NCBI GenBank assembly: GCA_963674745.2
Contig: CAXXDV010000001.1
Coordinates: 352,001-416,000 of the forward strand
From: Desulfosudaceae bacterium
GTDB lineage: Bacteria; Desulfobacterota; Desulfobacteria; Desulfobacterales; Desulfosudaceae
Direction of reading: 5' to 3'
DNA: 64,000 bases
Positions within the stretch are counted from its first letter, which is position 1. The number at the start of each line of letters is the position of its first letter. Positions 43,319 to 61,609 of this stretch are shown piece after piece. The translations under genes and the position numbers were made by a program. The notes under the pieces were generated by a model, which did no database searches, was not told the DNA's origin, and saw nothing but the letters and a program-made list of their open reading frames with translations.

Positions 43319-44752
43319 TCAGCGATAGACAATCAACTTCATACCGGTGACACATTTGCCAATAATATCCGCCGGGCCGGTTAGGTTTAACAGGTACCGT
43401 TTCAGCCGCCGGGGATGAAAGTAGTATCGCCGGTAAAATGTTTTGATCATGGCACAGATCCGGGCTTCGTCGATCCCGGCGGTCCAGAGGGTTATCCTGG
43501 AATTGGCCTCCGGCGCCCGGACGAATCTCTGGAACCATTCACGGTCATAGTTCGGATCATCGCTGGCTTCTTCAAAAATTCTCGTCCCGGGAAAAGGAAT
43601 AAGCGGATTACAGAAGACATAATCCGCGTCAAGCTTGAAAACAAAACTGAAGGTGTTCTGAATGTTCTCTTCTGTCTCCCAGGGGAAACCTATGATAATA
43701 TTAGCGACTGACATCACCCCGCTATTCCGGCACATGGAAAACGCCTGATCAATCTGTTCTCGGGAGATGTGCTTGTTGATTCGCCTCAAGGTATAAGCAT
43801 TAGCGGATTCAATGCCGAACTGGATGCGCTCGCAACCGGCCGAGGCCATTTCCCTCAACAACTCCCGATCAATACAGTCCACGCGCGTCTGGCAGGACCA
43901 GGGCAAACAGACCCCGCTTTTTTTTATAAACCGGCAGAGATCAAATACATGGTCCCGGGAAAAGGTGAACACGTCGTCGCTGAACTGTATGGAGCGATAC
44001 CCCATATCTTTACAGACCAGCATTTCTTCGGTCACCAGAGAAGAATCGCGAGGCAGAAAATAGCGCTCCTGGTTGTTGCAGAAACTGCAGTTATAAGGAC
44101 AGCCGCGGCTGGCCACCATCAAGGCGCATGGATGATGACGATTTACAGAGAATCGATGTTGTTTTATGTCAAGCACGCTTCTATCCGGAAACGGCAACGC
44201 GTCGAGAGCGCTTTTATCGAGCCAGGTCGGCGGCGTTTGCACTATCCGGCCCATCACCCGGCAGGTCGTCCCTGGAATACCGTCCAACGACCGGGATTGC
44301 CGCACCCGTTCGACAATCTCCATCAGCGGAATTTCGCCCTGCCCCTGAACGGTAATGTCGAACCGTCCACGTTCCAGCGTGTCTTCGGGGTAAGTCCACA
44401 TGTGCGGTCCCCCTCCGACGATAATCGTATCCGGAAGATACTTACGGATGGTATCCGTCAGCAGGCAGGTACCGTACCAGAAAGGGGAAATCACGGAAAG
44501 GGCGATGATGTCCGGCTGAAACTGCTTCAAATGATCGATAAACCGCCCAATTTTAGGTTGGTTTGGTGTCTGAAAGTTGAAAAGGTCAACCTCTGCCCGG
44601 GTATTCTCCTCCAGATAACTCTTGATGTATAACAAGCCCAAAGGCGGGGCGAAATCATGCATACGAAATGCAATACGATCATTAATACTCGGGAATATCA
44701 TGCGGCCCGTTTGGGGGGGATTAATCAGCAGTATGCGAATATGTCCGGACAT
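43319..44752 (-). CDS. B12-binding radical SAM protein
   Basis: ILLINPP, PPLGLLY, GGPH, SRGCPYNCSFC, FGIES. Confidence 0.9.
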   Translation of the reverse strand: MSGHIRILLINPPQTGRMIFPSINDRIAFRMHDFAPPLGLLYIKSYLEENTRAEVDLFNFQTPNQPKIGRFIDHLKQFQPDIIALSVISPFWYGTCLLTDTIRKYLPDTIIVGGGPHMWTYPEDTLERGRFDITVQGQGEIPLMEIVERVRQSRSLDGIPGTTCRVMGRIVQTPPTWLDKSALDALPFPDRSVLDIKQHRFSVNRHHPCALMVASRGCPYNCSFCNNQERYFLPRDSSLVTEEMLVCKDMGYRSIQFSDDVFTFSRDHVFDLCRFIKKSGVCLPWSCQTRVDCIDRELLREMASAGCERIQFGIESANAYTLRRINKHISREQIDQAFSMCRNSGVMSVANIIIGFPWETEENIQNTFSFVFKLDADYVFCNPLIPFPGTRIFEEASDDPNYDREWFQRFVRAPEANSRITLWTAGIDEARICAMIKTFYRRYYFHPRRLKRYLLNLTGPADIIGKCVTGMKLIVYR

Positions 44753-44959
44753 AATTACCGTAATTTAGTGCACCGTTTTAAAAACATTAAAAAACTTCGG
44801 AGAGCAAGTCAAACCAAATATCTTTCTGCCTTGCCGTTCCCGGCGATGGATGGCGGTTGAAACGACAGGATTTCGATATAATCGGAACAGGGCACAGGTT
44901 GAAAAGTTACACCAGGTTTACCTCACGCGGCCGGCTTCGTCAAGCAGATCATATCGGCC

Positions 44960-45860
44960 GAAAATGGTTATCGGTTATAGAAATAAACCCGGGTCGGAGG
45001 TTGTAGCGTATCCCCCCAGAAACGGGTCCTGATTTTCCGAAAACGCCGAACAAACTCAGGCCGAATGCCGCCAAACGCTCAAAAGCCGTTGTCGGTCCGA
45101 AGTCGCTTTCAATATCGGCCAGAATCATCGCCGGCGTCCCCCGCATTTCCGGACTGGGGAGCAGGCGAGACATGACCCGGAGTAATATATGGATTCAACA
45201 CCCATTTCGGCCAGTTTCTCAGCGCCAAAAGCCACCCCTTTATCGGCCGACGCGAAAATAAACAGCCGATATTACTTTCCCGATCTGATGATACCTTTTC
45301 GCAATTCTTCGGCGCATTGCAGATCCAGCAGAAAGTTATCATCACCCAGAATGCTGACGGCGTCGGTCCGATGAAGTTTTGTGGCCCTTTCGATTTCTTT
45401 AAAAAGTACTTTACCGGACTTAAAGAAACGGATATGTCGTTTACCGAAAAAGTGCCTCGGGCAGCAGAAATCACCCCCATACGAACACCCCAGTCCCACT
45501 GCGATATGGGGCGAGCCAAGACGTCGCAGGGGCACCCCCATGGCCTCCCGCACTTGACTTACGGTATCCGGATTTTTAAATTTAAAATGTTCCGGCAAGC
45601 CCAGCAAGTGACGCACAAATGTGATTCCCTCGCCCACGCAGACATGGTCCACTTCCAGTATTTTCTCGATGTCGGGTATGGCCGCACAGAAACCGCCAAT
45701 AACGACAAGTGATCGCGGGGACAACGTCCTGATCGTCTCGACCATTTTTTTGACTTTTAGAAAATTGGGCTTAATGGCGCTGATATCGACAATATCGTGC
45801 CACTTTCTAACCTCCTTCTGCCCCCCCCTGAAGAAGGGGAAGTCCAGCACAGTCACCGGC
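44960..45860 (-). pseudogene. Decayed paralog of the radical SAM gene at 37735
   Basis: N-terminus missing; cluster motif reads CSYGGDFC; in-frame TAA (SGK*YRLFIFASADK); jumps to C-terminal-like ILADIESDFGPTT after a large deletion. Confidence 0.85.
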
Positions 45861-46070
45861 GTATCATCTTGATCTGGTGAACAAAAAAGGTTTTCAGTAT
45901 ATGATGATTTATCGAAAAATCCAATTATCGGGTCGTAATATTTTCCTTTAGCCCGTCGTCAAGGACAAATAACGGTCAAAAAAAACTTTTCTTTTGGCGA
46001 ACGCTTGTGTATCTTCTTCATATAAAAAACGCCTCCAAAGAGGCATCATGCTGAACAATAACAACTTCTG

Positions 46071-47489
46071 ATGAAACCTTATCGCGTACTTTTTATTAAA
46101 CCACCTGACAGCGACGTAAATGTTCTTGCACTGGATGTCCCGTTGGGAATATTATACCTGTCCGCCTGTTTAAAAAAAGATCTCGGCCAGAAGGTAGCAG
46201 TTGATTTTATTGACCTGCGCCTGGAAAAAACCGCCCCTCAGCCTCTGACCGCAAAGATAAAATCCTTTTCTCCGGACCTGATCGGCATCAGCCTGCTGGC
46301 TTTTAACCGGCTTTTTATTAAACGGTACATCTCACTGATCAAGGAGCTAGAGCCTTCGGCCGCCATTGTCATTGGCGGTCCCGGCGCCACCTATGGCTAT
46401 GATGAATTCCTCCAACAACACCCGGAAATTGACGCCGCAGTGCTTTGGGAGGGTGAGGCTTCCTTTCCGCGGCTGGTCAAAGCGTTTATGTCAGGCGGTG
46501 ATATTAAAACCGTCAGCGGTATCGCCTGCCGGGAAGGCGACCGGGTCGTTCTTACCGAAAAAGCCGATTACATCCAGAATCTGGACAGCCTGCCCTTTCC
46601 CGACTACGATTTGATTCCTTTTGAACGATACTGGGGAGAAGAACCGCAACCGCAAATGAACGGTGTACTTGCCGACAAAAAATACACGCACATCATCAGT
46701 TCCCGGGGCTGCCCGTTTAACTGCATCTACTGCCACAAGATATTCGGCCAAAAATTAAGAAGCCGCAGTCCGGAAAACTTTGTCAATGAAATCAGATGGC
46801 TCAATCAGGCCTACGGTGTCCGGGAATTTCACATTGTGGATGATAATTTCAACTTTGACCGGGAGCGGATGCACATTATTCTGAATATGATCATCGACAA
46901 TCAGCTGGACATCAAGATGGCCTTTCCCAATGGCTTGAGGGCAGACATGCTGGAACCCGAGGATCTGGACCTGTTGAAAAAAGCCGGTGCTTACATGGTC
47001 ACCTTCGCCGTCGAAACAGCTTCTCCACGGCTCCAGAAAATCATCCGGAAAAACCTGAATATTGATAAGGTGACTGAAAATATCAATTACGCCGCATCCA
47101 TCGGCCTGATTGTGAAAAGTTTTTTTATGCTTGGGTTTCCCGGTGAAACACCGGAAGAAATTCATCAGACCATCAATTATGCCGTAAAATCAAAACTTGA
47201 CCTGGCCCATTTCTTTACCGTTACCCCTTTTCCCGGTACTGCTTTAAGACAGTTGGCCGAGGAGACCTATCCGGACTGGCAGGATCAGGCGCTTTATCAC
47301 TACTGGCCGGACGAACCTTTTTACCAGCAGGCCACCGGCTACAACCTCAACCGCATGCAGAAAAAGGCATACCTGAGGTTCTATGGATCACCCCGGATGT
47401 TCAAAACATTCTACAAGTCCCCACTGAAACTGAAACGGCTGAAAAAATGGGCCCTGTTTGCTGCCCAAATTCTCTGGAAAAAGAACTAA
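46071..47489 (+). CDS. B12-binding radical SAM protein
   Basis: VLFIKPP, VPLGILYL, GGP, SRGCPFNCIYC, DDNF, PFPGT. Confidence 0.9.
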   Translation: MKPYRVLFIKPPDSDVNVLALDVPLGILYLSACLKKDLGQKVAVDFIDLRLEKTAPQPLTAKIKSFSPDLIGISLLAFNRLFIKRYISLIKELEPSAAIVIGGPGATYGYDEFLQQHPEIDAAVLWEGEASFPRLVKAFMSGGDIKTVSGIACREGDRVVLTEKADYIQNLDSLPFPDYDLIPFERYWGEEPQPQMNGVLADKKYTHIISSRGCPFNCIYCHKIFGQKLRSRSPENFVNEIRWLNQAYGVREFHIVDDNFNFDRERMHIILNMIIDNQLDIKMAFPNGLRADMLEPEDLDLLKKAGAYMVTFAVETASPRLQKIIRKNLNIDKVTENINYAASIGLIVKSFFMLGFPGETPEEIHQTINYAVKSKLDLAHFFTVTPFPGTALRQLAEETYPDWQDQALYHYWPDEPFYQQATGYNLNRMQKKAYLRFYGSPRMFKTFYKSPLKLKRLKKWALFAAQILWKKN

Positions 47490-47499
47490 CCCGGATATA

Positions 47500-50151
47500 T
47501 CAACGTGTTCTGTCATCCGGCCCGTAGGCCTCTACCTCGTTCAACGACAGTACACACATGCCCGAAGCTTTTATATTGATATACCGCAGGGATTCTACCG
47601 GTTCAAAGACCAGTGCCTGGCAGTCTTTCCGGCTTAAAGTGCGGATCCGGGTTTCCCGCCACTGATTGCCATCCTCAGAAATTGACACGACCAGAGGCGG
47701 GCAATTGAGCTGATCATCGAAAAAGCCGGTACACAAGAAAATCCGCTCCACTAGAAATGAACGCCCCAGATCAACCTGCCACCAGGGTGTTTCCTGCCGA
47801 TCGGTAAAAAAACAAGAATCCATTCCCCGGCCGCCGTCAACCGCGTGACGGCTGTTGTAGAGATAAGGATAACCCGGTTTATGACTGCTCATCTGCGTCG
47901 CCTTGCCGAATGCCAGATTGATCGGCGCTGATGCCGGCCGAGACCGCCAACTGTAACGGGTACCGAGGTTGTCGCCGGTATAAAGGCTGGCATACCATAA
48001 CCAAAACAGACCGGCCCCCACGATAATGCCGGCGATGGCGATACCCGCCCCGTAAAACCCGGAGACACGCCGTATACCGACCAGGATGATCACCATACCC
48101 AGCGTCAGGCAGCTGATCACCATACCGTAAAAAGCGGCACTGCTCCAATATCGAAATTCTACTGTATGCTTACCGGGGGTAAGCCAAACAGCGTGGGCCA
48201 CACCGTTGGCCGGCCAGGTAACTGTTTTTCGGCCATCTACACGGGCCTGCCAGTGTCCGGAACGGGGGTATGAAAACACAAAAAATGACGGGCGGCAGGC
48301 TGTGGCGGAAAAAACCATTCGATTATAGGCGCTGTAGGTCAGATTGACCTGATCTTGTACAGATTCACAATTTTCATATTTCAAGGGTGAGACGGGTAAA
48401 GCTGAAAAGCCTTCAATAATAACCTCGTCCGCCTGCCGGTCGTCGTTCAACATCCGATATGCTTCATCAATATCAGAAGCAACGCTAAAGCGACGGTATA
48501 TTTTTGCCAGATCCGGCGCCATGAAATAGTTGTTTAACTGACGGACGATAATGCGGCTACCCGCGTGCTGGTTTAAAAAAAATACCGGTTGAAAATTAAT
48601 GGCTGCTTTTTTTTGCGCCAGGATCTGATCATATGTCAGTGTTTTCTCTTTTGGCACAATGGCATAAGGGCCAAAACGAAAGAAAACCAGCAACTGGACA
48701 ACCGTGAACACGGCCAGAAGAAGCCCAGCACCCCTGCGATGACCGGCAGGGAAAAAACAAACCGACACCAGGCACAGGATAACCAGGCTGATTGTCAGAG
48801 AAAACGGTCTGACCCATCCCGGAATGGATCGGATATGATACGGACAGCCATAGTTGACATTTTCAAAAAAATGGCCCGGCAGGCAGAGATAAACCACTAC
48901 CAGAATAAAAGCCACTATGGCCGTAACGGCCACCGGGTTGAACGGCGTGCCCCCGCCCGGCTCTGAAACAGTTGCCGCCAGCCATGTCAGAACCATCATA
49001 AACAGAAGGGGAAGCATGAGGGCGATCCGCCCCGGCCCGCGAAGGGCCGAAATCAGGGGAATATGTTCCCAGGCCCAGCGATGAACCGTTGTCAGGGGAC
49101 CCTGCATGTAAAAACAGACGATAACAATGACTCCGAGCAGGGCCCAGATCACCGGCGGCACTTTTATCCGGAAAAAGACCAACACCACCGGCGCGATCAC
49201 GGCGATCAGGAAAAGCGGCGATCCGCCGAACATGGAAAATCCCGACCCCAGGGGGAAAAAGAAATTATTCAGAAAACCCGGCAGGGTGTCGGTCCATTGA
49301 ACAGCCCATTGATAGGTCTGATCAACCCTGCCCGAGCTGTTGCGCATATAATCCCAGAAAAAAGGCAACAGGTAGGCGGATGAAAGCAGCATACCCGTGC
49401 CACAAAAAAGCCCGGTTTTCCCCCAGAAACGGACAATTTCTTTCAAACCGCTTTTTTTTGCACCCCTTGAAATCGAATTGTAAAGAAACGGCAAAGTCAA
49501 AGCGAATATCACCGTCCCAATCACACCATAAAACACCATGGGCGGAAAATCACTGGTAATCAGCCAGTAAGTGGTGCCGACAATCAGCAACGGGGGGCGC
49601 CAGCCGGTTTGTTTCAGGTAATAACAGCCGATGGCGCTACAGAGCAACAATGTACCGGTATATGCTTCCAGGGCGGTAGCGTTCCAGAAGATCGCCAGCA
49701 TGCGAAGGTTATAAACAGTAATCAGCGAAAAGATAAAAGCCGTGGTCGGCCCCAGCCGCATTTGCTTTAGAAACCGGAACAGGCAAAAATGGCAGAAGGC
49801 CAAGATGATCAACCTGAAAAGGGTAATCCATTCCAGCGAATACCCCTGCCAGAAACCCGGCATAAATGTGGCCAGGTAACCCATGGGATGATAGAGCTGG
49901 GCATGCGGATAAACCGAAGACTGGCCGTAATAACAGGCCGGGGCGTACAGCGGGAAAGAACCGCTTTTTACGGAAAACAACAGATCAAGCTGGTGATATA
50001 CATGATAATTGATATAATCGCTACCGAGCGACTGGCTGGAAACAAACGGCAACATCCAGTAAAACAGTACCAACGGCAGCAGAAATATTATCAGGTGAAC
50101 AAAACCGTTTTCTGAGAATCGTTTTTTCAATGTTAGATAAAATTGTCCCAT
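47500..50151 (-). CDS. YfhO-like polytopic membrane protein with C-terminal discoidin/F5-8 domain
   Basis: Many TMs, WQARVDG..GKHTVEFRY YfhO-type motif, NLAFGK..PWWQVDLG..LNEVEAY. Confidence 0.8.
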   Translation of the reverse strand: MGQFYLTLKKRFSENGFVHLIIFLLPLVLFYWMLPFVSSQSLGSDYINYHVYHQLDLLFSVKSGSFPLYAPACYYGQSSVYPHAQLYHPMGYLATFMPGFWQGYSLEWITLFRLIILAFCHFCLFRFLKQMRLGPTTAFIFSLITVYNLRMLAIFWNATALEAYTGTLLLCSAIGCYYLKQTGWRPPLLIVGTTYWLITSDFPPMVFYGVIGTVIFALTLPFLYNSISRGAKKSGLKEIVRFWGKTGLFCGTGMLLSSAYLLPFFWDYMRNSSGRVDQTYQWAVQWTDTLPGFLNNFFFPLGSGFSMFGGSPLFLIAVIAPVVLVFFRIKVPPVIWALLGVIVIVCFYMQGPLTTVHRWAWEHIPLISALRGPGRIALMLPLLFMMVLTWLAATVSEPGGGTPFNPVAVTAIVAFILVVVYLCLPGHFFENVNYGCPYHIRSIPGWVRPFSLTISLVILCLVSVCFFPAGHRRGAGLLLAVFTVVQLLVFFRFGPYAIVPKEKTLTYDQILAQKKAAINFQPVFFLNQHAGSRIIVRQLNNYFMAPDLAKIYRRFSVASDIDEAYRMLNDDRQADEVIIEGFSALPVSPLKYENCESVQDQVNLTYSAYNRMVFSATACRPSFFVFSYPRSGHWQARVDGRKTVTWPANGVAHAVWLTPGKHTVEFRYWSSAAFYGMVISCLTLGMVIILVGIRRVSGFYGAGIAIAGIIVGAGLFWLWYASLYTGDNLGTRYSWRSRPASAPINLAFGKATQMSSHKPGYPYLYNSRHAVDGGRGMDSCFFTDRQETPWWQVDLGRSFLVERIFLCTGFFDDQLNCPPLVVSISEDGNQWRETRIRTLSRKDCQALVFEPVESLRYINIKASGMCVLSLNEVEAYGPDDRTR

Positions 50152-50781
50152 CTCAATTTTTATAAGGCAGCCACCTTCCCAAATTGTTTAATATATAACA
50201 CATTGTATGAAAATATAAAGTTTGGTCGGTTTTCAATGTTTGAACATATCAGCGCTGCGCAAATTATTGTGAGATATCACCGTCCGGATTTTCTCATTTA
50301 TTAGTTAGAAAGGGTATGCTATTCAATATTTAAATTGATATTCGGAATCCGGCATGCCTTGCCAGTATTAACCTGTTCAGCAACACAAACAGCCAGACGT
50401 TTTCCCATGTCATATATCACCGCCCCCCGGAGTGCAGGGTTTCATTTTACTGGATGCCGAATCCGAATTTTAATCAAATGCAAGAACAGGGCGCAGTATG
50501 ACTGGAACCGGGTCCATGTCACCTGTCTTCAGTCCCGAATGAAAAAAATGTTGGAAATTTTGTCCATACCTAGCCTATGTATTGATAAGAAATTCGACGA
50601 ATATCTTGTTCCAGGCTGGCTTCACCCGGCCATTAGCTGTTACCGGCCTCTGGCCCGGATAAGGAAGAAAACATTATGCCACAATTTTCCGGTGTAAACG
50701 GCAGGGGCCAAGGGCCTTCTGAAACGGATGGCTCAGTGCAGGGGCCGACCACAGCCCTGGACATTATAGAAACGAGTTGGT

Positions 50782-52178
50782 ATGCCCAGAATACTGCTTA
50801 TTAAGCCCTATTCTTACAGCGACGTCATCACCCCCCCCCCCTGGGACTGGGTTACTTGGCGGCGAATCTGGATCAGAACACCGAGGTAATGATTTTTGAC
50901 GGTGTCCGGGACCAGTTGACACCCTCAAAGCTGACGGAGACAATCAAATTGTTTCAACCGGACATGGTCGGGTTATCAATTGTGTCTGCAGCATCAAAGA
51001 CGGTCCTTGATGATATCCGGGTTGTCCGTCGCCTTCTGCCCGACGCCGTCATTGTCGCCGGCGGTCCGCACCCCAGCCTGTTGCCCCACGAATTCAACGC
51101 GGCCGCGGAGGACAGTATTGACTATATATTACGTGGCGATGCTGAAACGGCATTCAGGATGCTGGTGGCGCGATGCTGGAATCAACGCAGCCGGGATATT
51201 TCCAGCCGGGACATCGCGGATATCCCGGGAATCTGGTCAAAAACACGGGACGGTATGGTTTCTTCGGATATACCGCTCAACCAGGCCTGTGATGAACTCG
51301 GCATCCCGGCATGGGATTTAATGCCGCCGGCCGAATATCCCAGGGTTCCTCAGGGGGAATTTTTCAAAAATTTTCCTGTGGCCCCGGTAATTACCAGTCG
51401 TGGATGTCCCTTTGAATGCGGTTTCTGCAGCGTGGCGGCTTTGAAGGGAAAAACGGTTCGGTTTCGCAGCCCCGACCTGATCGCCGACGAAATTCAACTC
51501 CTGAAAAACAAATTCGGCGTAAAAGAAATCCAGTTTGTTGACGACAATCTTACGGTTTCCAAAGAACACGTGCTGAGCGTCTGCGAAGCCATGCTAAACA
51601 GGAATCTAGACATTCCCTGGTCTTGCCCCAACGGTGTTCGAGTCGATACCCTGGATGATGACATTGTCGAGGCCATGAAAGCTGCCGGATGTTATTCTGT
51701 TTCCGTTGGTCTGGAAACCGCCAATCCCGACGTTCTGGAACGAATGAACAAGCATCTTGATCCGGATAAAGCCATCGAAGCCGTTCACCGGGTTGCCCGC
51801 AAAAAGATAGAGGTCAACGGCTTTTTTATTTTAGGTTATCCAGGCGACAATGAGGCGAACATTAAAGACACGATCCGCCTGGCCAAACGACTGCCTTTGA
51901 CCCGGGCACACTTCATGCTTTTTACGCCTTTCCCGGGTAGCCGGGAATACGAACGGCTGTCCCGGGTTTCCGGGAATCGTGTACCACATGACGCCACTTT
52001 TGCCCAGGTCTCTTATGTGCCACACGGGATGACGAAAAAGGATCTTAAACGTCTTCACCGACGGGCATTTATCGAATTCTACGCCCGTCCTGCTGCCGCT
52101 TGGAAGCTGGTGAAGGCAGTAAATTCTCTGAACGGGCTTTACTATTTTCTGCGAAGAACGTTTCACTGGTTGGGATAA
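50782..52178 (+). CDS. B12-binding radical SAM protein, frameshifted at a C11 tract
   Basis: MPRILLIKP...VITPP | LGLGYLAA split across 50831-50841; GGPH, SRGCPFECGFC. Confidence 0.85.
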
Positions 52179-53426
52179 ATGGCCGGAACAGGCAACACCA
52201 TCATACTGCTCAATCCGCCTTATCGGAAAAAGATACTGCGGGATTACTACTGCTCCACATTTCCCAAAGCGCCATATTACTGGCAGCCCATTGATCTGCT
52301 GTCTGTGGCGGCCATTCTAAACGGCAAAGCGGATATCCAGGTAATCGATGCTGTTGCCCGGCGACTGACGGCAAGCCAGGTTGAAAGTATCATGGCCGAA
52401 CAGGCGCCTCGAGCCGTATTCATGCTGGTTTCCTCTTTAACGAAAGACGCCGATCTGACGCTGGCCAAAAGGATCAAGAAACCGGGACGACGAATCGTAA
52501 TCGGGGGAGAAATCGCACTTGCCCCTGATTTCGACTTTGCACAACATGATGCCGTTGACGGCCTGCTGCTGGACTTTACCGATGAGGGGGCGGTTGGATT
52601 CATTGCCGGTGAAAATCCAACCGGCAGGTTGAGAACCCCGTGGCATGCCCCCGCCACGCCACGAATCGGACACCGATATAACCTGGGCATAATGCCCCAT
52701 CACCTTCTGGATAATAGCCGATACCGTCTGCCGCTCTGGCAGGGCCGTTTTTATTCCCTGCTGACAGATTTCGGTTGCCCCTTTAACTGCCGTTTCTGTA
52801 ACTCAGGAAGACAATCCATCGGTTTCAAGTTAAGGGATTTGGCGGAAGTCGCAGAAGAAGCCAGGCAGCTAAAAAGACTCGGGGCAAAAAAAATCTTTAT
52901 CAAGGACATGACTTTTGGGGCAGACCGGTCTCATGCCGAATCGGTTTTATCCATACTGGCGCCCTATGGTTTCAGACTGAGGGGATACCTGCGGGCCGAC
53001 CTGATAACCCAGAAGTTTGCCGGTTTGTTGAAAGCGGCCGGGTTTGAACTGGCACAGATCGGTGTGGAGCGCCCCCTGGAAGACGTCAGACGCGGTTTAG
53101 GAAAAAATATTCCCGACGCAGTTATCGCCGACGCCTTTCAAATTCTACGCCGGATCGGAATTGATGCCGGCGCTCACTTTATCGTCGGTTTTGAGGGTGA
53201 CGGCACAGGAACAGCAGGCGCCTGTATCAAACAAGCCCGGGCCCTTGGAGCGGCTTATTGTTCCATCAATATTTATCAACATCGTCTGGGGGCATCCGCC
53301 CTGCCGGCATTATCCGGCTGGGGGAAACACGCACTCTCTCTTTGCGCCGGTTTTAACATGGCCAGATATAACGGCCGCCGTCAAATAAGCTGCCTATGGA
53401 AAAATATGAGGGCCGGGAACAGATAA
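52179..53426 (+). CDS. B12-binding radical SAM protein (divergent)
   Basis: ILLNPP, GCPFNCRFC, IGVE; directly abuts the upstream gene. Confidence 0.8.
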   Translation: MAGTGNTIILLNPPYRKKILRDYYCSTFPKAPYYWQPIDLLSVAAILNGKADIQVIDAVARRLTASQVESIMAEQAPRAVFMLVSSLTKDADLTLAKRIKKPGRRIVIGGEIALAPDFDFAQHDAVDGLLLDFTDEGAVGFIAGENPTGRLRTPWHAPATPRIGHRYNLGIMPHHLLDNSRYRLPLWQGRFYSLLTDFGCPFNCRFCNSGRQSIGFKLRDLAEVAEEARQLKRLGAKKIFIKDMTFGADRSHAESVLSILAPYGFRLRGYLRADLITQKFAGLLKAAGFELAQIGVERPLEDVRRGLGKNIPDAVIADAFQILRRIGIDAGAHFIVGFEGDGTGTAGACIKQARALGAAYCSINIYQHRLGASALPALSGWGKHALSLCAGFNMARYNGRRQISCLWKNMRAGNR

Positions 53427-53706: not shown

Positions 53707-53779
53707 CGGTTTTTTAACAATAATGAATTTAATCAGTGATTTTGGGTTGACAATCCGCCATTCAGCGTCACAATATGCC

Positions 53780-53930
53780 ATATGGGCACCTCTAAAAATT
53801 GTCTTAGGGCCCGATGTCGGTGTTGTGCTCAAATTTTAATCCTCGAGATACTTCAATGTATTCCTCCGGTTAAAATTTTCACACGCCTTGACCTCGAACC
53901 AGAATGCTATTTTTTAAAAGTAGCCCATAT
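53780..53930. mobile_element. MITE-like element upstream of iscU
   Basis: Terminal IRs ATATGGGCACCTCTAAAAAT / ATTTTTTAAAAGTAGCCCATAT; internal dyad AAATTTTAATC..GGTTAAAATTT. Confidence 0.65.
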
Positions 53931-53960: not shown

Positions 53961-54482
53961 ATGCTTTATTCAAAAACAGTCATGGATCACTTCAGAAGCC
54001 CCAGAAATGTCGGCGAAATCGAAGACGCTGACGGTGTTGGCGAGGTCGGCAACCCCATTTGCGGGGACATGATGACCATCTACATCAAAGTCGTGGATGA
54101 ACATATAAAAGACATTAAATTCCAGACTTTCGGGTGCGGCTCCGCCATTGCGGTATCGAGCATGCTGACGGAAATCGCCATGGGTAAATCAATTGAAGAG
54201 GCCAAGAAAATCACCAACAAGGACGTGGCCGAAGCGTTGGACGGTCTGCCCAAAAACAAGCTGCACTGCTCCAACCTGGGCGCTGACGCCCTGCAGATGG
54301 CCATAAAAGACTACGAAGACAGGAAAGCGGGCATCGTCCGGCCGAGAGAAGAGCACCGGGAAAAACATGTCCATATCCATGAAGACGGTTCCTGCCATTG
54401 CCCCTACTGTGATTCGGAAGTGGATCAGGATGCCAAGTTCTGCAATGCCTGCCTGTCGGACATCGACGAAGATGAGCATTAA
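53961..54482 (+). CDS. iscU: Fe-S scaffold IscU/NifU-N with His-rich linker and C-terminal zinc ribbon
   Basis: MDHF..PRNVG, CGD, FGCGSAIA, HCSN; tail HVHIHE, CPYC..CNAC. Confidence 0.9.
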   Translation: MLYSKTVMDHFRSPRNVGEIEDADGVGEVGNPICGDMMTIYIKVVDEHIKDIKFQTFGCGSAIAVSSMLTEIAMGKSIEEAKKITNKDVAEALDGLPKNKLHCSNLGADALQMAIKDYEDRKAGIVRPREEHREKHVHIHEDGSCHCPYCDSEVDQDAKFCNACLSDIDEDEH

Positions 54483-54541
54483 ACATGTGTGCTTAATTAA
54501 TAGCCGCCTTTAATTTGCACCAAGACTACACGGAGTCAGCC

Positions 54542-55709
54542 ATGAGCAAAATCAATCTGGACCATATATCCGCCAGCCATTTGTTACCGGAAGTGCAGGA
54601 GGCCATGATCAAGGCCATTCAAGGGACGCTGGGCAACCCCTCCAGCCAGAACATGGAAGGGGAACGCGCGTCCGCCATGCTGGGAAAAGCCCGGGAATCA
54701 GTCGCCGGCCTGATCAATGCCCAATACCCGACTGAAGTTGTTTTTAACTCCTGCGGCACCGAATCCATCAACCACGCCATCAAGGGCGTGGCCAGAGCCA
54801 ACACTAAAAAAGGCAACCATATTGTCACCTCCAATATTGAACATAACGCCGTCAACCGCAGCTTAAAACGACTGATGCAGCTGGGGTGCAAAAGTACCGC
54901 CGTCGCCGTTGACAACAAGGGGCTGGTTGATCCGGAAGAGGTGGCCCGGGCCATTACCGACGAAACGATACTTGTGTCGATCATGCACAGCAACAACGAA
55001 ATCGGCACCATCCAACCCCTCAAGGAAATCGCTCAAATTACCAGAGAAAAAAAGGTGATCCTGCACACCGATGCCGTGGATTCTGTTGGTATCGTGCCGA
55101 TTGATGTCGAGGACCTGGGCGTTGACCTGATGAGCTTTGCCTCAAACCCCTTTTACGGCCCGACCGGAGTGGGTGGACTGTACATCCGGCGCGGTACCAA
55201 CGTCTGGCCCATTATCGACGGCGGGGTCCAGGAAAAAAAACCGTCGGGCCGGCACGGAAAACCTGATCGGCATTATCGGCATGGGCGTGGCTTCAGACCT
55301 GGCCCGTCGCGACATGAATGACAGGCTGACCCATCTCAAAAAGCTGAAAAGCCTCCTGTTGAACGAGTTGCCCAATTATGTCGATGAATACATCATTAAC
55401 GGCGACGTGGAAAACGGCCTGCCCAACCTGGTGTCTGTCTCCCTCAAATATATCGAGGGCGAAAGCATCATGCTCATGCTGGATGATGAAGGCTTTACCG
55501 TATCCACCCGGTCTGCCTGCGCCACCGGTTCGCTGCGGGCATCCCATGTACTGATGGCCATCGGCCTGGACCATGCCGACGCCCAGGGTACCCTGGTCAT
55601 TACCCTGGGAGTGGAAAACACCGAGGACGACATCATCAACTTTTTAAAAGCCCTTAAAAGCATCGTGGATTCACTTCGGGCCATGTCCCCGCTGTACAAA
55701 AATCGATAA
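54542..55709 (+). CDS. iscS: Cysteine desulfurase (IscS/NifS)-like protein lacking the PLP lysine; frameshift at an A8 tract
   Basis: GNPSS, GTESIN, IEH, NNEIG, RAGTEN, SACAT; FASNPFYGP replaces SxHKxxGP; frame break at 55233-55240. Confidence 0.85.
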
Positions 55710-56043: not shown

Positions 56044-57561
56044 ATGACAAAATATCGTACTGTCTTTCATTTCCTGTTGATCCTGCTGGGTTTGTCATTA
56101 CCCGTGGGGGCGGCGCAGGATGCCCGGCAAAACGGGCAGGCCATGTTCCGCATGGGGGTATTCGCCTATGAAAGCGGAGACTATAAAACCGCTGAAAGCT
56201 ATCTCAAGCAGGCGCTTGTATCCGATGAAAACAACGCCTATGTCAATTATTATCTGGGCAATGTCTATCTGCATACCGGAAACTATTCCCGGGCGGCGGT
56301 GTTTTTTGACAAAACCCGGAGCCTGGATAAAAGCCTGCCCGACCTGGCTTATAACTGGGCCTATGTCAATTTCAAGCTGAACAATTTCGACGCAGCCGGG
56401 CAATTGTTTGAAAAGCTGACGGCCTCGGAACCCGACAATGTCCTGGCCCATTACTACGCCGGCCTGTCTTTATTCAAGCAGGGCAAATATCAGCCGGCCC
56501 TACCGTTTTTAGACCGGGCCGTACGGATGAATACGCCTGTCAGCTGCCACGCCGATTATCATGCGGCCCTATGTGATCTGCAGCTCAAGAACACGGATTC
56601 AGCCAGAGATCGCCTGACACGCGTTCAGGAAAATACCGCCGAAGAAGACCTGCGCCGGGCCGCGACCGATCTTCTGGAAAGAATCAGGCGTGGTGAGCAA
56701 CCCGGAAAGCGCTATGCCCTGACGGCCAAGCTGGGCTGGGAGTATGACGATAATGAAGCCCTGGAGCCCATCGACGACAACGATCTTTTCGCGGATGACG
56801 CCGATTATATTTTCAGCGGCTTCCTGTCAGCATCCTATGACCTGATCCGGACAGACCGTTTTATCTTTGGGGCCGGTTACAGCCATTACCTGACGATCCA
56901 TAAAGAAATCGAAGAGTACGATCTGTCGGCCAGCCTGTTTGACGTTTACGCCCGGTATCGCCGCAATGCCTATACCTATTCCTTTCAATACAACCCCGAC
57001 TATTACTGGCTGGACTCCGAGAGTTACCTGTGCCGGCATGAGTTCAGGTTTATTGTCAGCCGGATGTTTGACAATGTTTTAACGGAATTCACCGGCATCC
57101 ACAGGCGGGACAACAACATGTATGACCCCGATAAAGACGGTTATGCCAACGAGGTTTTTTTCAGGTGCCGGTACAGCCTGCCGGAAGAAAAAGGGGAACT
57201 GCGGGCCGGTCTGGGTTATGAGGTAAATACCGCCGACCATCGGGACCATGATTACAAGACCATCGGCACCGAACTGGCGGCGGCCTTCAACCTCGGCTGG
57301 GAGGTTTGCCTGACGCTCAGCGGCGAATGCGACTTTCAGCAATACGATCACACGGATTCTTTTTACGGAAAAAAGCGGGACGACACCCGGTTTATCGGAA
57401 ACATCCTGCTGTCCCGGAACATTTTCAACGACATGATCGCGGCCCATATCGGCTATGAGTACACCCGGAACAGATCGAACATAGATGATTTCAGTCAGTA
57501 CAACGCCAATTTCGATTATGAAAGTAATGCCGTCAAAGTTTTCCTGACGCTCACCATTTAA
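56044..57561 (+). CDS. TPR-containing outer-membrane beta-barrel protein (Slam/DUF560-like architecture)
   Basis: Signal peptide, TPRs, GWEYDDN barrel start, alternating aromatic strands, terminal VFLTLTI. Confidence 0.65.
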   Translation: MTKYRTVFHFLLILLGLSLPVGAAQDARQNGQAMFRMGVFAYESGDYKTAESYLKQALVSDENNAYVNYYLGNVYLHTGNYSRAAVFFDKTRSLDKSLPDLAYNWAYVNFKLNNFDAAGQLFEKLTASEPDNVLAHYYAGLSLFKQGKYQPALPFLDRAVRMNTPVSCHADYHAALCDLQLKNTDSARDRLTRVQENTAEEDLRRAATDLLERIRRGEQPGKRYALTAKLGWEYDDNEALEPIDDNDLFADDADYIFSGFLSASYDLIRTDRFIFGAGYSHYLTIHKEIEEYDLSASLFDVYARYRRNAYTYSFQYNPDYYWLDSESYLCRHEFRFIVSRMFDNVLTEFTGIHRRDNNMYDPDKDGYANEVFFRCRYSLPEEKGELRAGLGYEVNTADHRDHDYKTIGTELAAAFNLGWEVCLTLSGECDFQQYDHTDSFYGKKRDDTRFIGNILLSRNIFNDMIAAHIGYEYTRNRSNIDDFSQYNANFDYESNAVKVFLTLTI

Positions 57562-57577
57562 TATTCAGGAGTCAACC

Positions 57578-58567
57578 ATGACAGAATTCAATAACAGTTT
57601 TTTGCGGGGCTGGTTACCGATCGTGCTGATCTTGACGACTGTCAGCCTTGTCTGGGGGATTAACAACGCTCAAGCCCGGGATGGAGTCATACCCGATGAT
57701 CTGCCCCTGGAATCAACCTTCTGGCCGGGGCCCGGTAGAAGCGTGGGGGTGGTCGATGTCATTCAGGGGAAAGCCGTTGTCCAGCATGAAAATGAAAAGC
57801 GGGGATACCTGGTCAGCAAAGGGATGAACCTGTACAACGGCGACACCCTTTACACATCCGGTGATTGTCACCTGGAAATGTCGCTCAACGACGGCAGCAA
57901 CATGGTGCTTTCTTCCGGCACGCAGATCGTCATTGATAAAAGCATTTACGATCCCGCCTCCGGAAGCCGGCTCTCCTTTTTCCAGATGCTGTCCGGCAAG
58001 GCCCGTTACATGGTCAAGAAACTGGCCGACTACAAACATTCCCAGTTCAACGTCAAGACAAAATCATCCGTCGTGGGCGTCCGGGGATCGGACTTTGTCA
58101 TTGAAATCAGCCAGGAGGGCGACAAAATCGTCATCACCGCCCTGGGCCACACCATTCTGGAGATATTTGATCCAGCCAACCCCCTGACGGAACCGGTCAT
58201 AGTCACCTCCTTTCAGCAGCTGATCACCGTACTGGGCCAGGTCCTGGGTGAGCCGGTGGACATCTCAAGTGAAGAAGTCATGAAACTGCTTCAGGAGCTG
58301 GGCCTGCTCTTATCCGGCGGCGGCGGCCAGGGCGGAGAAGGAACCGGCGGCGGCGGGGGCTTTATTCCCCACGGCGGAACCTGGCAGGGTCCGCCGGTTG
58401 GAGGAGGAATTCAATATTTACCCGGCTGGAATCCTTTCTTGCCCATACTGCCGCCACCGATCTTCGGCCCCGGCCCCAATGACCCTTTTTATAACGACCC
58501 GGGCGCCTGGATAAGGCCGCCCTTGACACTCCCCCTGCCGGACATGCCCGATATACCCATGGATTAG
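57578..58567 (+). CDS. Secreted FecR-domain protein with Gly/Pro-rich tail
   Basis: Signal peptide, LYNGDTLYT, LNDGS, FNVKTKSSVVGVRGSDF. Confidence 0.8.
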   Translation: MTEFNNSFLRGWLPIVLILTTVSLVWGINNAQARDGVIPDDLPLESTFWPGPGRSVGVVDVIQGKAVVQHENEKRGYLVSKGMNLYNGDTLYTSGDCHLEMSLNDGSNMVLSSGTQIVIDKSIYDPASGSRLSFFQMLSGKARYMVKKLADYKHSQFNVKTKSSVVGVRGSDFVIEISQEGDKIVITALGHTILEIFDPANPLTEPVIVTSFQQLITVLGQVLGEPVDISSEEVMKLLQELGLLLSGGGGQGGEGTGGGGGFIPHGGTWQGPPVGGGIQYLPGWNPFLPILPPPIFGPGPNDPFYNDPGAWIRPPLTLPLPDMPDIPMD

Positions 58568-58618
58568 GGGCTTTAGTATAATTAAATAAATTTTGACCCA
58601 AAGCAGGAGACAAGCGTC

Positions 58619-61609
58619 ATGAAAAATATCAGGCTCATTTTGTTAACCCTATTTATCGCCGTGCTGGCCGCCCTGCCGGCAACAGCGGCCGTCTACTATG
58701 TAGACATTGTAAACGGCACCGATGATCCCTTCAACGGTTTAACCCCGGGCACGGGCGCCTGGAAGACCATTCATTACGCGGTCGACGAGATTGTTGCCTC
58801 AACCGGTGGAAATGGTGATACCCTGAATATTGCGGCCGGTACGTACTCTGTATCTGCTTTAGTGCCCGGCGGCGAGTCTGACAGCCCACTGACGTTTAAC
58901 GGTTGGAGCAACTCCTCTATCCTCGGAGACCCGGCCGGCGGTACCATAATTGACCTGAACTCAGCTGTTTCATGGGCCAACGGGATTCAGCTGGACTTTT
59001 GCTCCAATGTCACCGCCAGTAACCTCGAAATTACAAATGCTTATAACAACGGCATTTATGCCGACGGATGCACGGGCACCGCCATCACCCGGTGCGACAT
59101 CCATAACAACAGCAATTTTGGTGTTTACCTCAACAACTGCAACAACACCAATACGGTCAGTCGTAACCGGGTTTATGACAACCCGAACGGCATTGGTGTT
59201 TATGCGCAAGAGGAAAACGATCCCTGCTCGCCTTTGATCGTTAACAACCTGATTGTCACGCCGGAAGAGAGCATGTTCCAGGGCATCATGGTAATATCAA
59301 CCGGTTACACTTACCCTGCCTTTGCCTCTCCCACGATATTTCACAACACCATTGACGGCGGCGGTAACGACGGCATTTATCTTTTTACATTCGGCCCTTT
59401 TGCTATAACCAACCCGAACATTCAATACAATATCATTACCGGTTTCGGTAACAACGGTATTAACGGTGGTACTGACGGCTACGGCGGCCAGCTCAACCCG
59501 ACCCTGAATTATAATGACCTTTTTGGAAATTCAACGGCTTATTCCGGCACCGGCATTGGGCCGGGGCCTAACAGCATTGCTGTTGATCCCGTTTATTCCG
59601 GCGGTGGTTTTGAGTTAGATCCTTCCTCGCCCTGCATCGACGCGGCCACCACTTCCAACATCACCGAGGATATCGACGGCACGGTCCGCCCCCAGGGGAC
59701 AGCCCCGGATATGGGCTGTTATGAATATCCCAGCGGCGTTATCACTCCGGAGCCGGTGGCCTATCCCGGCATAACGGTTCTGCCCTATGAAGGACTGGAG
59801 ACCAGTGAAGACGGCAACAGGGCCACGTTCACGGTAAAACTCGACACCCTCCCCTCGGCCCCGGTAGTGATCCCCATTACCAGTTCCGATACGGGTGAAG
59901 GCGCGGTTTTGCCGGCATCTCTGACGTTTACCGCCAACAACTGGTTTACCCCCCAGACCGTGGTTGTCAGGGGGGTTGATGACAGCCTGGTCGACGGCGA
60001 TATCCCTTATACCGTCGGTGTCGGTCCGGCCGTCTGCAACACCTTTGATTACAACGGGCGGAGCGGACATGATGTCAATGTAACCAACCTCGATAACGAC
60101 AGTGCCGATATCATTGTCGACCCGACCTCGGGTTTGAGGACCTCCAAGTTCGGCGGCAGTGATACCTTCACGGTGGTGCTGAACAGCCAGCCCATCGCAC
60201 CGGTGGCGGTTTCGCTGTCCAGTTCCGACACAAGCCTCGGCATTCCCTCTCCAGAGGCGCTTACCTTCACCCCGGACAACTGGAGCCGGCCGCAGACCGT
60301 CACGGTTACCGGCCAGGACAACGGGATCGAAGAAGACGCCCCGTATACGATTATTACCGCACCTGCGGTAAGCCAGGACCCGATTTACAACGATCTTGAT
60401 GCTGACGATGTCGAGGTTGTCAATGTCTACAACATGCCCCCGGATCAACCCGGCTATGTTTTCCCGCAGCCTTTTCAGATGTTCCCGCCGGGAACATCGA
60501 TTACCCTGAGAGGCAGCACCTTTTATGATCCCGAGGGTGATAGGCATGATCAAAGCTGGTGGCGGATCGCGCCGCTCAACCGGGGCGCTTTCGGGTGCGA
60601 AGAATACCCGGGATTTTTTGAACATATCTCAGGCACTGATTTGACATCATACACCATCCCCACCCAGAACCTGAAACCGGGCGTGGTTTATGTCTGGATC
60701 GTCGGTTACAAAGACGAGGGAAGCGGGGCTTTCACCTGGTCGGACCTGGATGAGAGAGTGAAGAACACGTTTATGATCGGGGTAGAAGAAACGATTGACC
60801 TGCCGCCGGTCCCACCGGGCACAACTGCGGCCTATTTTGTCATGCTCTCCTGCCATCACTATATTCCCGACAATTCCAGCGCCCTGGCCGTTATTGGGGA
60901 TGATTTAACCGGTGGTTATGACAGCCGTTATTACCGCATCGGCACATATGACCCCTTACAGAATGACGGCGGCTATAAGGAGTATCCCGGGTTCAGCCTC
61001 CTTCCCGGTACCGCTTTCTGGGTGTTGGCCAGAAACGGCCTGGCCATCGACCTGACCGGTATTGCCATGACCACTGCCGAAGACGTGGATCTTCCGCTGA
61101 TGTTCAACAGCAATAATAATAACGGCTGGAACATGATCGGCCCGCCGAACAACCAGAATTATCCCTGGGGCAATGTTCAAGTCGTTGTGTTTTCTCAATC
61201 CAATCTCTGCGAACCCGAATTCGGTCCGGTCACAATCGGTGAGCTTGATCCCAACAACCCTTATATCGACACCCGACTGCTGGAATGGGACGGACAGGGC
61301 TATAATGAAGTATCCATGATGATGGCGGGTTATGGTTACTGGGTAAAAGTCAGGCAGCCGAGAATAAACCTGCGGTTTCCGGTCAGCGCCCAGGCATCTC
61401 TGAAAAACCCGGATGTTCTGATGGCCGTCGGCATGAATAAAATCAAAGAAACCGCCGGGGAGCTCTTTTCACCGAATGAAGCCCTGGCGGACGATCAGAA
61501 CGATATGCCGCCGGCTCCCATGGCGACAATCGACAGTGACGGAGTCAACGCTTCTTTCGGTTCGTCATCCGGTGGTAACTGCTTTATCGAAAGCTTGAGG
61601 GATAAATAG
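58619..61609 (+). CDS. Large secreted protein: parallel beta-helix, two Calx-beta-like repeats, C-terminal GGNCFI sorting-like motif
   Basis: Signal peptide, AWKTIHYA, Asn-rich helix repeats, SPCIDA..DMGCYE, duplicated LTFT..NW..PQTV, SSSGGNCFIESL. Confidence 0.8.
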   Translation: MKNIRLILLTLFIAVLAALPATAAVYYVDIVNGTDDPFNGLTPGTGAWKTIHYAVDEIVASTGGNGDTLNIAAGTYSVSALVPGGESDSPLTFNGWSNSSILGDPAGGTIIDLNSAVSWANGIQLDFCSNVTASNLEITNAYNNGIYADGCTGTAITRCDIHNNSNFGVYLNNCNNTNTVSRNRVYDNPNGIGVYAQEENDPCSPLIVNNLIVTPEESMFQGIMVISTGYTYPAFASPTIFHNTIDGGGNDGIYLFTFGPFAITNPNIQYNIITGFGNNGINGGTDGYGGQLNPTLNYNDLFGNSTAYSGTGIGPGPNSIAVDPVYSGGGFELDPSSPCIDAATTSNITEDIDGTVRPQGTAPDMGCYEYPSGVITPEPVAYPGITVLPYEGLETSEDGNRATFTVKLDTLPSAPVVIPITSSDTGEGAVLPASLTFTANNWFTPQTVVVRGVDDSLVDGDIPYTVGVGPAVCNTFDYNGRSGHDVNVTNLDNDSADIIVDPTSGLRTSKFGGSDTFTVVLNSQPIAPVAVSLSSSDTSLGIPSPEALTFTPDNWSRPQTVTVTGQDNGIEEDAPYTIITAPAVSQDPIYNDLDADDVEVVNVYNMPPDQPGYVFPQPFQMFPPGTSITLRGSTFYDPEGDRHDQSWWRIAPLNRGAFGCEEYPGFFEHISGTDLTSYTIPTQNLKPGVVYVWIVGYKDEGSGAFTWSDLDERVKNTFMIGVEETIDLPPVPPGTTAAYFVMLSCHHYIPDNSSALAVIGDDLTGGYDSRYYRIGTYDPLQNDGGYKEYPGFSLLPGTAFWVLARNGLAIDLTGIAMTTAEDVDLPLMFNSNNNNGWNMIGPPNNQNYPWGNVQVVVFSQSNLCEPEFGPVTIGELDPNNPYIDTRLLEWDGQGYNEVSMMMAGYGYWVKVRQPRINLRFPVSAQASLKNPDVLMAVGMNKIKETAGELFSPNEALADDQNDMPPAPMATIDSDGVNASFGSSSGGNCFIESLRDK

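Follow-up and report, generated by a model that had tools for sequence, protein, structure and literature searches.

Can an IscS homolog that lacks the Schiff-base Lys, and whose reading frame is interrupted in the assembly, still serve the IscU scaffold encoded directly upstream of it, and where would the sulfur come from? The question is raised by a gene pair in the window, by which the whole analyzed stretch of 64,000 nucleotides is meant. The homolog is designated here as IscS*, and the following features of its gene are needed for the argument, with counts referring to the homologs aligned below.

54542..55709, plus strand: Lys-less IscS homolog (IscS*), 388 aa when read across the frame break
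55070..55081, plus strand: DAVD, in which the ring-binding Asp177 is kept and Asp180 replaces Gln (Asp180 in 119 of 120)
55145..55150, plus strand: Asn202-Pro203, replacing His-Lys, of which the Lys is the Schiff-base Lys
55233..55240, plus strand: run of 8 A at which the frame is broken, with one base fewer in short-read contigs
55509..55520, plus strand: R323-S-A-C326, a clade-specific invariant Arg and the retained loop Cys (each in 120 of 120)
55596..55598, plus strand: Val352, replacing the substrate-carboxylate Arg (Arg in 0 of 120)

A match to PF00266 places IscS* in the class V PLP fold (fold-type I) with a group I loop, and its model is predicted to have a normal fold (pLDDT 88.8, TM 0.90-0.94 to NFS1/IscS). 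The codon at 55148-55150 is CCC (Pro), giving MSFASNPFYGPTG at the site where solved desulfurases read SAHKMYGPKG. The protein reads HTDAVDS at the DAVQ motif, and TRSACATG 3′ of the frame break. An earlier note on this DNA had claimed a Pro at the Schiff-base Lys, the change of DAVQ to DAVD and the retention of the loop Cys (RSACAT), and all three are read exactly so.

Contigs of the public runs X1 and X2 span the IscS* gene with no other letter changed and with one base omitted at 55233; both runs come from one sample, possibly the source sample of the window. Because these contigs differ from the gene in the window only at 55233, the frameshift most likely arose in the assembly, and the Pro codon is genuine. 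The loss of Lys had been claimed to be independent of the frameshift, and the CCC codon kept in the contigs of X1 and X2 bears this out, as do the homologs described next. The dN/dS ratios against five relatives are 0.05-0.17 before the frame break and 0.11-0.21 after it, and the frames of IscS* orthologs are open. Judged by these ratios, both halves of the gene are under purifying selection.

The pocket was aligned among the best 120 of 7,982 matches to the intact ortholog from genome G002. Among these 120 proteins, the Schiff-base position is occupied by Pro in 100, Thr in 16, Ala in two, Ser in one and Tyr in one, and by Lys or Asp in none. The earlier note had regarded orthologs that all retain Lys as a sign of pseudogene decay, and what was found is their complete opposite. 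The His preceding the Schiff-base position is Asn in all 120, the Gln of DAVQ is Asp in 119, and the substrate Arg is replaced by Val, Leu, Met or Ile in all 120. The roles of the pocket residues other than Lys and Cys, the role of the substrate Arg included, are presumed here to be those of E. coli IscS. The loop Cys is retained in every one of the 120 proteins, and the residue three positions before it is always Arg, where most canonical enzymes have Gly. H101, D177, G72 and T73 are invariant as well.

A wider set of 166 group-I proteins was composed of 143 of 150 representatives (seven were too short and were dropped) and 23 others. Lys, Arg and Cys are all kept in 141 of them, while 22 have lost both Lys and Arg and kept Cys; eight of these 22 belong to the IscS* clade. 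Loss of Lys without Arg, or of Arg without Lys, is seen in only two proteins, and one is without Cys. Judged from these alignments, the erosion of the pocket in the IscS* clade is fixed and coordinated. The intact ortholog P0004 falls below the curated desulfurase cut-offs, with 435.6 against 530.75 for TIGR03402 and 340.4 against 643.2 for TIGR02006. By its sequence, IscS* is outside the active desulfurase family, because two defining residues fail.

The partner of IscS* is a scaffold protein with all of its cluster ligands.

53961..54482, plus strand: iscU/MisU-type scaffold gene, 173 aa, with ligands C34, D36, C59, H102 and C103 intact
54246..54260, plus strand: LPKNK motif, residues 96-100 of IscU, at the position of E. 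coli LPPVK
54354..54452, plus strand: His-rich linker and five-Cys tail (C145, C147, C150, C161, C164) of IscU, a putative metal site predicted as a small beta-ribbon

The IscU protein exceeds the TIGR03419 cut-off of 187.9 with 196.3 bits and contains a NifU_N domain with the Cys-Gly-Asp, Cys and His-Cys ligands, all of which are invariant among 60 aligned IscUs. The LPKNK motif, which had been put forward as a special feature, is present, and LPKNKLHC is found in 117 of 120 IscU homologs. Its special status is ruled out by LPKQK in A. fulgidus IscU; LPPQK is seen in 7C8M.

The His-rich linker (H132-H140) and the CPYC/CNAC tail (C147-P-Y-C150, then C161-N-A-C164) were also found as claimed. 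A fifth Cys, C145, absent from the earlier note, is invariant in 60 of the 60 aligned IscUs, in which two tail His residues are near-invariant. The label "zinc-ribbon" stands in part: the CxxC-x10-CxxC pattern is present in 119 of 120 homologs, while the match to PF13240 is weak (E 7e-5, 22.9 bits), below the Pfam cut-off of 25, and "zinc" is for that reason a guess. In the model, the tail forms a small beta ribbon, predicted with modest confidence, and the linker that carries it is disordered. A word-limited search among proteins of 30-94 aa revealed no stand-alone homolog of the tail, and a search of the Atlas gave one weak match (0.79), which serves as a lead only.

Of 308 confirmed loci, the best 80 were surveyed for the two genes; according to record titles, these are mostly from Desulfobacterales and related Desulfobacterota. 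The iscU gene lies directly upstream of the IscS* gene in 72 of these 80, the other eight being cut by contig ends, and 67 of the 72 paired IscUs have the ribbon pattern. The residue at the Lys position could be parsed in 65 loci, and it is Lys in none. No other gene is a conserved neighbor in these 80 loci, each occurring in 16 or fewer; in particular, none of the E. coli-type ISC neighbors hscA, hscB, fdx and iscA is conserved there. The idea of a heterodimer with a tandem Lys-bearing IscS was rejected, as such a gene was not found beside IscS* in any of the 80 loci, nor in any of the 22 loci of another Lys-less type.

Other Lys-less IscS proteins were observed during the survey. A second type from the same order has HTDAVA, TGSACASK and Val at the Arg position (L146 3269-5502, L151 4215-5784, L152 1400-3523; also L147, L148, L150 and L153). 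It is accompanied by a plain IscU in three loci and, in two, by a gene which we take, by eye from its sequence, to be Rrf2/IscR-like. A third type with SGHQFYGPKG is encoded directly upstream of a ribbon-less IscU (L157-L172 and others); in the same scan, 29 of 80 loci have two genes for Lys-bearing desulfurases, which in nearly every case lie in tandem. A scan seeded with P0315 revealed no close relatives of that protein, the best being about 55%. The ribbon tail was not seen on the IscU of other Lys-less types, either in three pairs from the order or in 14 IscU-bearing Lys-less loci.

The DNA around the pair in the window shows two further features upstream of iscU.

53747..53774, plus strand: sigma-70-like site TTGACA-16-CACAAT, matching 10/12 of the consensus, a candidate promoter upstream of the repeat
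53780..53930, no strand assigned: MITE-like repeat, about 150 bp long, whose terminal inverted repeats are imperfect and 19 nt in length

Seven sigma-70-like sites were found, against 3.2 expected by chance. The MITE-like repeat is dispersed, with 37 matches in the genome including the copy in the window, and it is not part of the conserved iscU-iscS* unit. Farther upstream (window 43319-53426), a YfhO-like membrane protein is encoded in a cluster with four or more genes for B12-binding radical SAM proteins; a link between these radical SAM genes and the pair was ruled out, since the neighborhood is not conserved in other genomes. Downstream (window 56044-61609), genes for a TPR protein, a FecR-domain protein and a 996-aa beta-helix protein follow in a row.

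The pair from G002 was modeled as a complex including 2Fe-2S and Zn. The predicted complex scores 0.68, against 0.06 for the best control; of the 157 solved complexes, 116 reach the mark used, as do two of 215 mismatched pairs. At least 80% of contacts agree among the runs, and the partner pLDDT is at least 76. The predicted interface comprises residues 303-315, 324-333, 344-348 and 380-386 of IscS* and residues 33-39 and 55-63 of IscU, with no residue of the IscU tail named. In the model, the Cys loop sits on the cluster-ligand face of IscU, although passing the mark may reflect the likeness to solved IscS-IscU structures. The 25 interface residues of IscS* have a mean conservation of 0.93, against 0.80 overall. 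By this measure, which does not depend on the model score, the IscU-binding face is retained while the pocket of IscS* is rebuilt. The tail with its five Cys and its His residues probably serves as a flexible site for a metal, Zn or Fe, outside the IscS*-IscU interface.

The closest known system is IscS2-IscU from Archaeoglobus fulgidus (PDB 4EB5, 4EB7 and 4HVK, with the D199K variant in 4R5F). The likeness to A. fulgidus IscS had been pointed out in the earlier note, and it proved closer than claimed: IscS* and the 4EB5 chain share the absence of the Schiff-base Lys, the change of His to Asn, the loss of Gln and of the substrate Arg, and the kept loop Cys. A. fulgidus IscU is the best solved match to the window IscU (70% identity, 122 columns, rmsd 1.3, for the modeled G002 ortholog), and identity between IscS* and A. 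fulgidus IscS is about 44%. The systems differ in several respects. IscS* has Pro or Thr where A. fulgidus IscS has Asp in place of the Lys; its Gln is replaced by Asp, and an invariant Arg precedes the Cys; the gene order iscU-iscS differs from that of A. fulgidus, and the five-Cys/His tail of the window IscU is absent from the 153-aa A. fulgidus IscU.

The IscS* clade is fully supported in every tree, on a long stem, and P0259 groups apart from it throughout. In the LG tree, the clade is placed among other Lys-less, mostly bacterial-type proteins (with cluster names including Nitrospirae and Chloroflexi), apart from the group holding P0259, a protein whose best PDB match is 4EB5 and which served as a proxy for A. 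fulgidus IscS, whose own sequence was outside the tree. A quick tree with a mixture model left the sister of the clade open, and union with the P0259 group was not rejected by the AU test (p 0.52); a common origin with the archaeal group is therefore possible.

The best PDB sequence matches of IscS* are 9WEP, 9WER, 9WEW, 9WF8, 9WFB, 9WFE and 9WFY. These are near-identical 406-aa desulfurases which vary at pocket positions, and Ile at position 9 and Val at the substrate Arg match the IscS* clade. Unlike IscS*, the five entries with alignments shown keep Lys; 9WFY includes IscU. This series may stem from work on degenerate IscS. No paper on the IscS* clade, on a "pseudoenzyme" IscS or on this series was found in the literature searched, most subscription journals lying outside it.

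A Lys-less IscS beside IscU is thus already known from A. fulgidus and, in the available part of PMC7585200, from Methanosarcina acetivorans, where IscS1 is Lys-less and its partner is the unusually long IscU1 of 24.2 kDa; the latter is likened by description. What is new is a Desulfobacterales clade with a fixed Asp/Asn/Arg pocket, a five-Cys IscU tail and evidence for the pair as a possible sole assembly system. In the available excerpts of a 2022 review, IscS of the sulfate reducer A. fulgidus, with Asp199, binds PMP and has no desulfurase activity, the use of sulfide is proposed, and the D199K variant still carries PMP (PMC8918507).

It is likely, by analogy, that the IscS*-IscU pair works like the A. 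fulgidus pair. The main reading, given a probability of about 0.6, is that a catalytically dead IscS aids IscU in making clusters with sulfide as the sulfur source, which is also the proposal for A. fulgidus. IscS*, stripped of the catalytic Lys, His, Gln and the substrate Arg, would dock on its IscU partner as in the model, and its loop Cys326 would be lent as a transient ligand to the growing [2Fe-2S] cluster on IscU. The sulfur of the cluster would be sulfide made by the cell and not cysteine sulfur, with an internal supply suggested by dsrA. From the A. fulgidus pair, we infer that IscS* has no desulfurase activity and that its Cys has a ligand role. IscS* may possibly bind a B6 vitamer loosely, because H101, D177, G72 and T73 are invariant. 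According to the accessible text of PMC13015791, sulfide feeds IscU without IscS in an E. coli iscS mutant; the retention of IscS* therefore needs explaining.

Two other systems help to place this reading. The MIS system (MisS-MisU; Clostridium-type NifU, TIGR03419) resembles the pair in that it consists of just two genes and its IscU-like scaffold has a single domain. MisS is a described cysteine desulfurase in the available portion of a 2026 review (PMC13066941), whereas IscS* is without the catalytic residues and below all curated desulfurase cut-offs. In the same portion, the SMS system (SmsBC) makes clusters from sulfide with no desulfurase (PMC13066941). SmsBC are SufB/SufC-type proteins unrelated to the pair, and we infer that the link between SMS and the pair is functional.

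The pair was found in 44 of 121 genomes of the order, a carrier being defined by an ortholog above 580 bits or as the genome of the window (43), with G064 added, in which a contig-cut IscS* copy has Ser at the Lys position. Counts based on 43 carriers leave out G082 as uncertain, because a locus containing unread bases in this genome includes a canonical nifS-like gene. SmsB is present in 10 of 43 carriers against 43 of 77 non-carriers. Both NifU and SufB are absent from 8 of 43 carriers, spanning seven families, against 1 of 77 non-carriers, and of the genomes that lack NifU, SufB is present in 4 of the 12 carriers but in 14 of the 15 non-carriers. The Fisher p values for co-occurrence are 0.001-0.003 and overstate the significance, since related genomes are not independent.

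A tentative possibility is that the pair is a sulfide-fed route which replaces SmsBC: the dead, Arg-bearing IscS would capture HS- at its loop Cys and present it to IscU, the IscU tail would be a rubredoxin-like iron site for iron supply or electron uptake, and the pair would be the sole system in some sulfate reducers. As a speculation, the tail could act as an electron sink, its putative Fe(Cys)4 site taking electrons from the oxidation of Fe2+; such a sink would be needed because assembly from sulfide offers no persulfide to reduce.

Whether a desulfurase acts behind the pair was considered in a survey of nine genomes. The genome of the window is 99.96% complete in three contigs and contains dsrA; no match to SufB/D and no three-domain NifU were found in it. 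A single Lys-bearing group-I desulfurase is encoded there, by itself and away from the pair, which answers the check for a Lys-containing paralog proposed earlier, and sulfur could be donated in trans by this enzyme. Lys-bearing desulfurases were found in G000, G044, G071, G129 and G082. None was found in G077, G084, G115 and G064, draft assemblies of 93-99% completeness in 50-210 contigs, two of which share a genus; IscS* and SerC are the only class-V PLP proteins found in them, and all four contain dsrA. In these four sampled genomes of sulfate reducers, which are among the eight carriers without NifU and SufB, the pair is the only Fe-S assembly machinery found. Genome content thus supports independence of the pair from a desulfurase, as the earlier note had proposed for it, although the Lys-bearing desulfurase in the genome of the window qualifies that proposal.

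Some related genes were seen in passing. A stand-alone Lys-bearing group-I desulfurase is encoded at L001 7995-9134 (G000:C1); its loop reads SAGAACH, it scores below the equivalog cut-offs for NifS and IscS, and similar copies are present in many relatives. In G077, about 100 codons of a decayed nifS remain as a fragment in the middle of a contig (L255 2364-2675), while the IscU-IscS* pair of this genome is intact.

The strongest rival is a SufE-like persulfide relay, in which Cys326, aided by Arg323, would take sulfane sulfur from a desulfurase, TusA/DsrE, rhodanese or polysulfide and pass it to IscU. It is consistent with the invariance of the Cys and its neighboring Arg in the best 120 of 7,982 matches, and with the stand-alone Lys-bearing desulfurase in the genome of the window and several carriers. 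It is nevertheless unlikely, because a sulfur-carrier gene is never a conserved neighbor in the best 80 of 308 loci and no Lys-bearing desulfurase was found in four carriers; a donor such as inorganic polysulfide is unaffected by either point.

Strict mutual exclusion of the pair with NifSU was ruled out. Among the 121 genomes, NifU is present in 93 and SufB/D in 53, and of the 44 carriers 31 have three-domain NifU, as do 62 of the 77 non-carriers (p 0.26), so the pair is an addition in most genomes. This retention of NifU would agree with an accessory role, in which the pair stores, repairs or hands on clusters, or senses iron through the tail, and housekeeping assembly is left to NifSU, Mrp/ApbC or other proteins. 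Mrp/ApbC-type proteins were found in three of five genomes checked, but no match was seen in G115 and G064. In these two and in G084, neither SufB nor NifU was found and the search for NifU_N proteins gave the IscU of the pair alone, and every IscU ligand is invariant, all of which makes an accessory role improbable. The genome of the window has two NifU_N matches, and several carriers encode short proteins resembling NifU_N. One such stand-alone protein of 145 aa, with TGTCGD...HEHC and the Cys, Asp and His ligands, was observed at L002 7465-7902 (G000:C3), and similar ones are present in several relatives.

Lys-less PMP enzymes occur in other families. IscS* could likewise be an active B6 enzyme with a rebuilt pocket, holding PLP or PMP non-covalently, with Asp180, Asn202 and Arg323 functional and sulfur from cysteine or another substrate. 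The invariant H101, D177, G72 and T73 and the fixation of the new residues would suit such an enzyme, but Lys and the substrate Arg are lost together. In the accessible part of PMC8918507, A. fulgidus IscS, with similar losses, is inactive, and its D199K variant is still PMP-bound. A rebuilt enzyme is thus very improbable. A decaying pseudogene, which the frameshift in the assembly might suggest, can be dismissed in view of the contigs of X1 and X2, the conservation among homologs with open frames, and dN/dS ratios of 0.05-0.21.

The reading of a dead IscS that aids IscU with sulfide has consequences for annotation and for the family. Proteins of the IscS* clade are publicly labeled "cysteine desulfurase", which likely misleads metabolic reconstructions. 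One member of the clade, P0042, is named at its source as from Desulfosudis oleivorans, so material for tests exists. Cluster assembly on the desulfurase-inactive A. fulgidus IscS-IscU is listed as open in the part of the 2022 review available (PMC8918507), and the self-contained function of IscU-like MIS systems awaits validation in that of the 2026 review (PMC13066941). The pair described here is common in one order, under selection, under-represented together with SmsB, and the sole system found in four sulfate reducers, and the IscS* clade is evidence of a comparative kind that a pair like this can suffice by itself.
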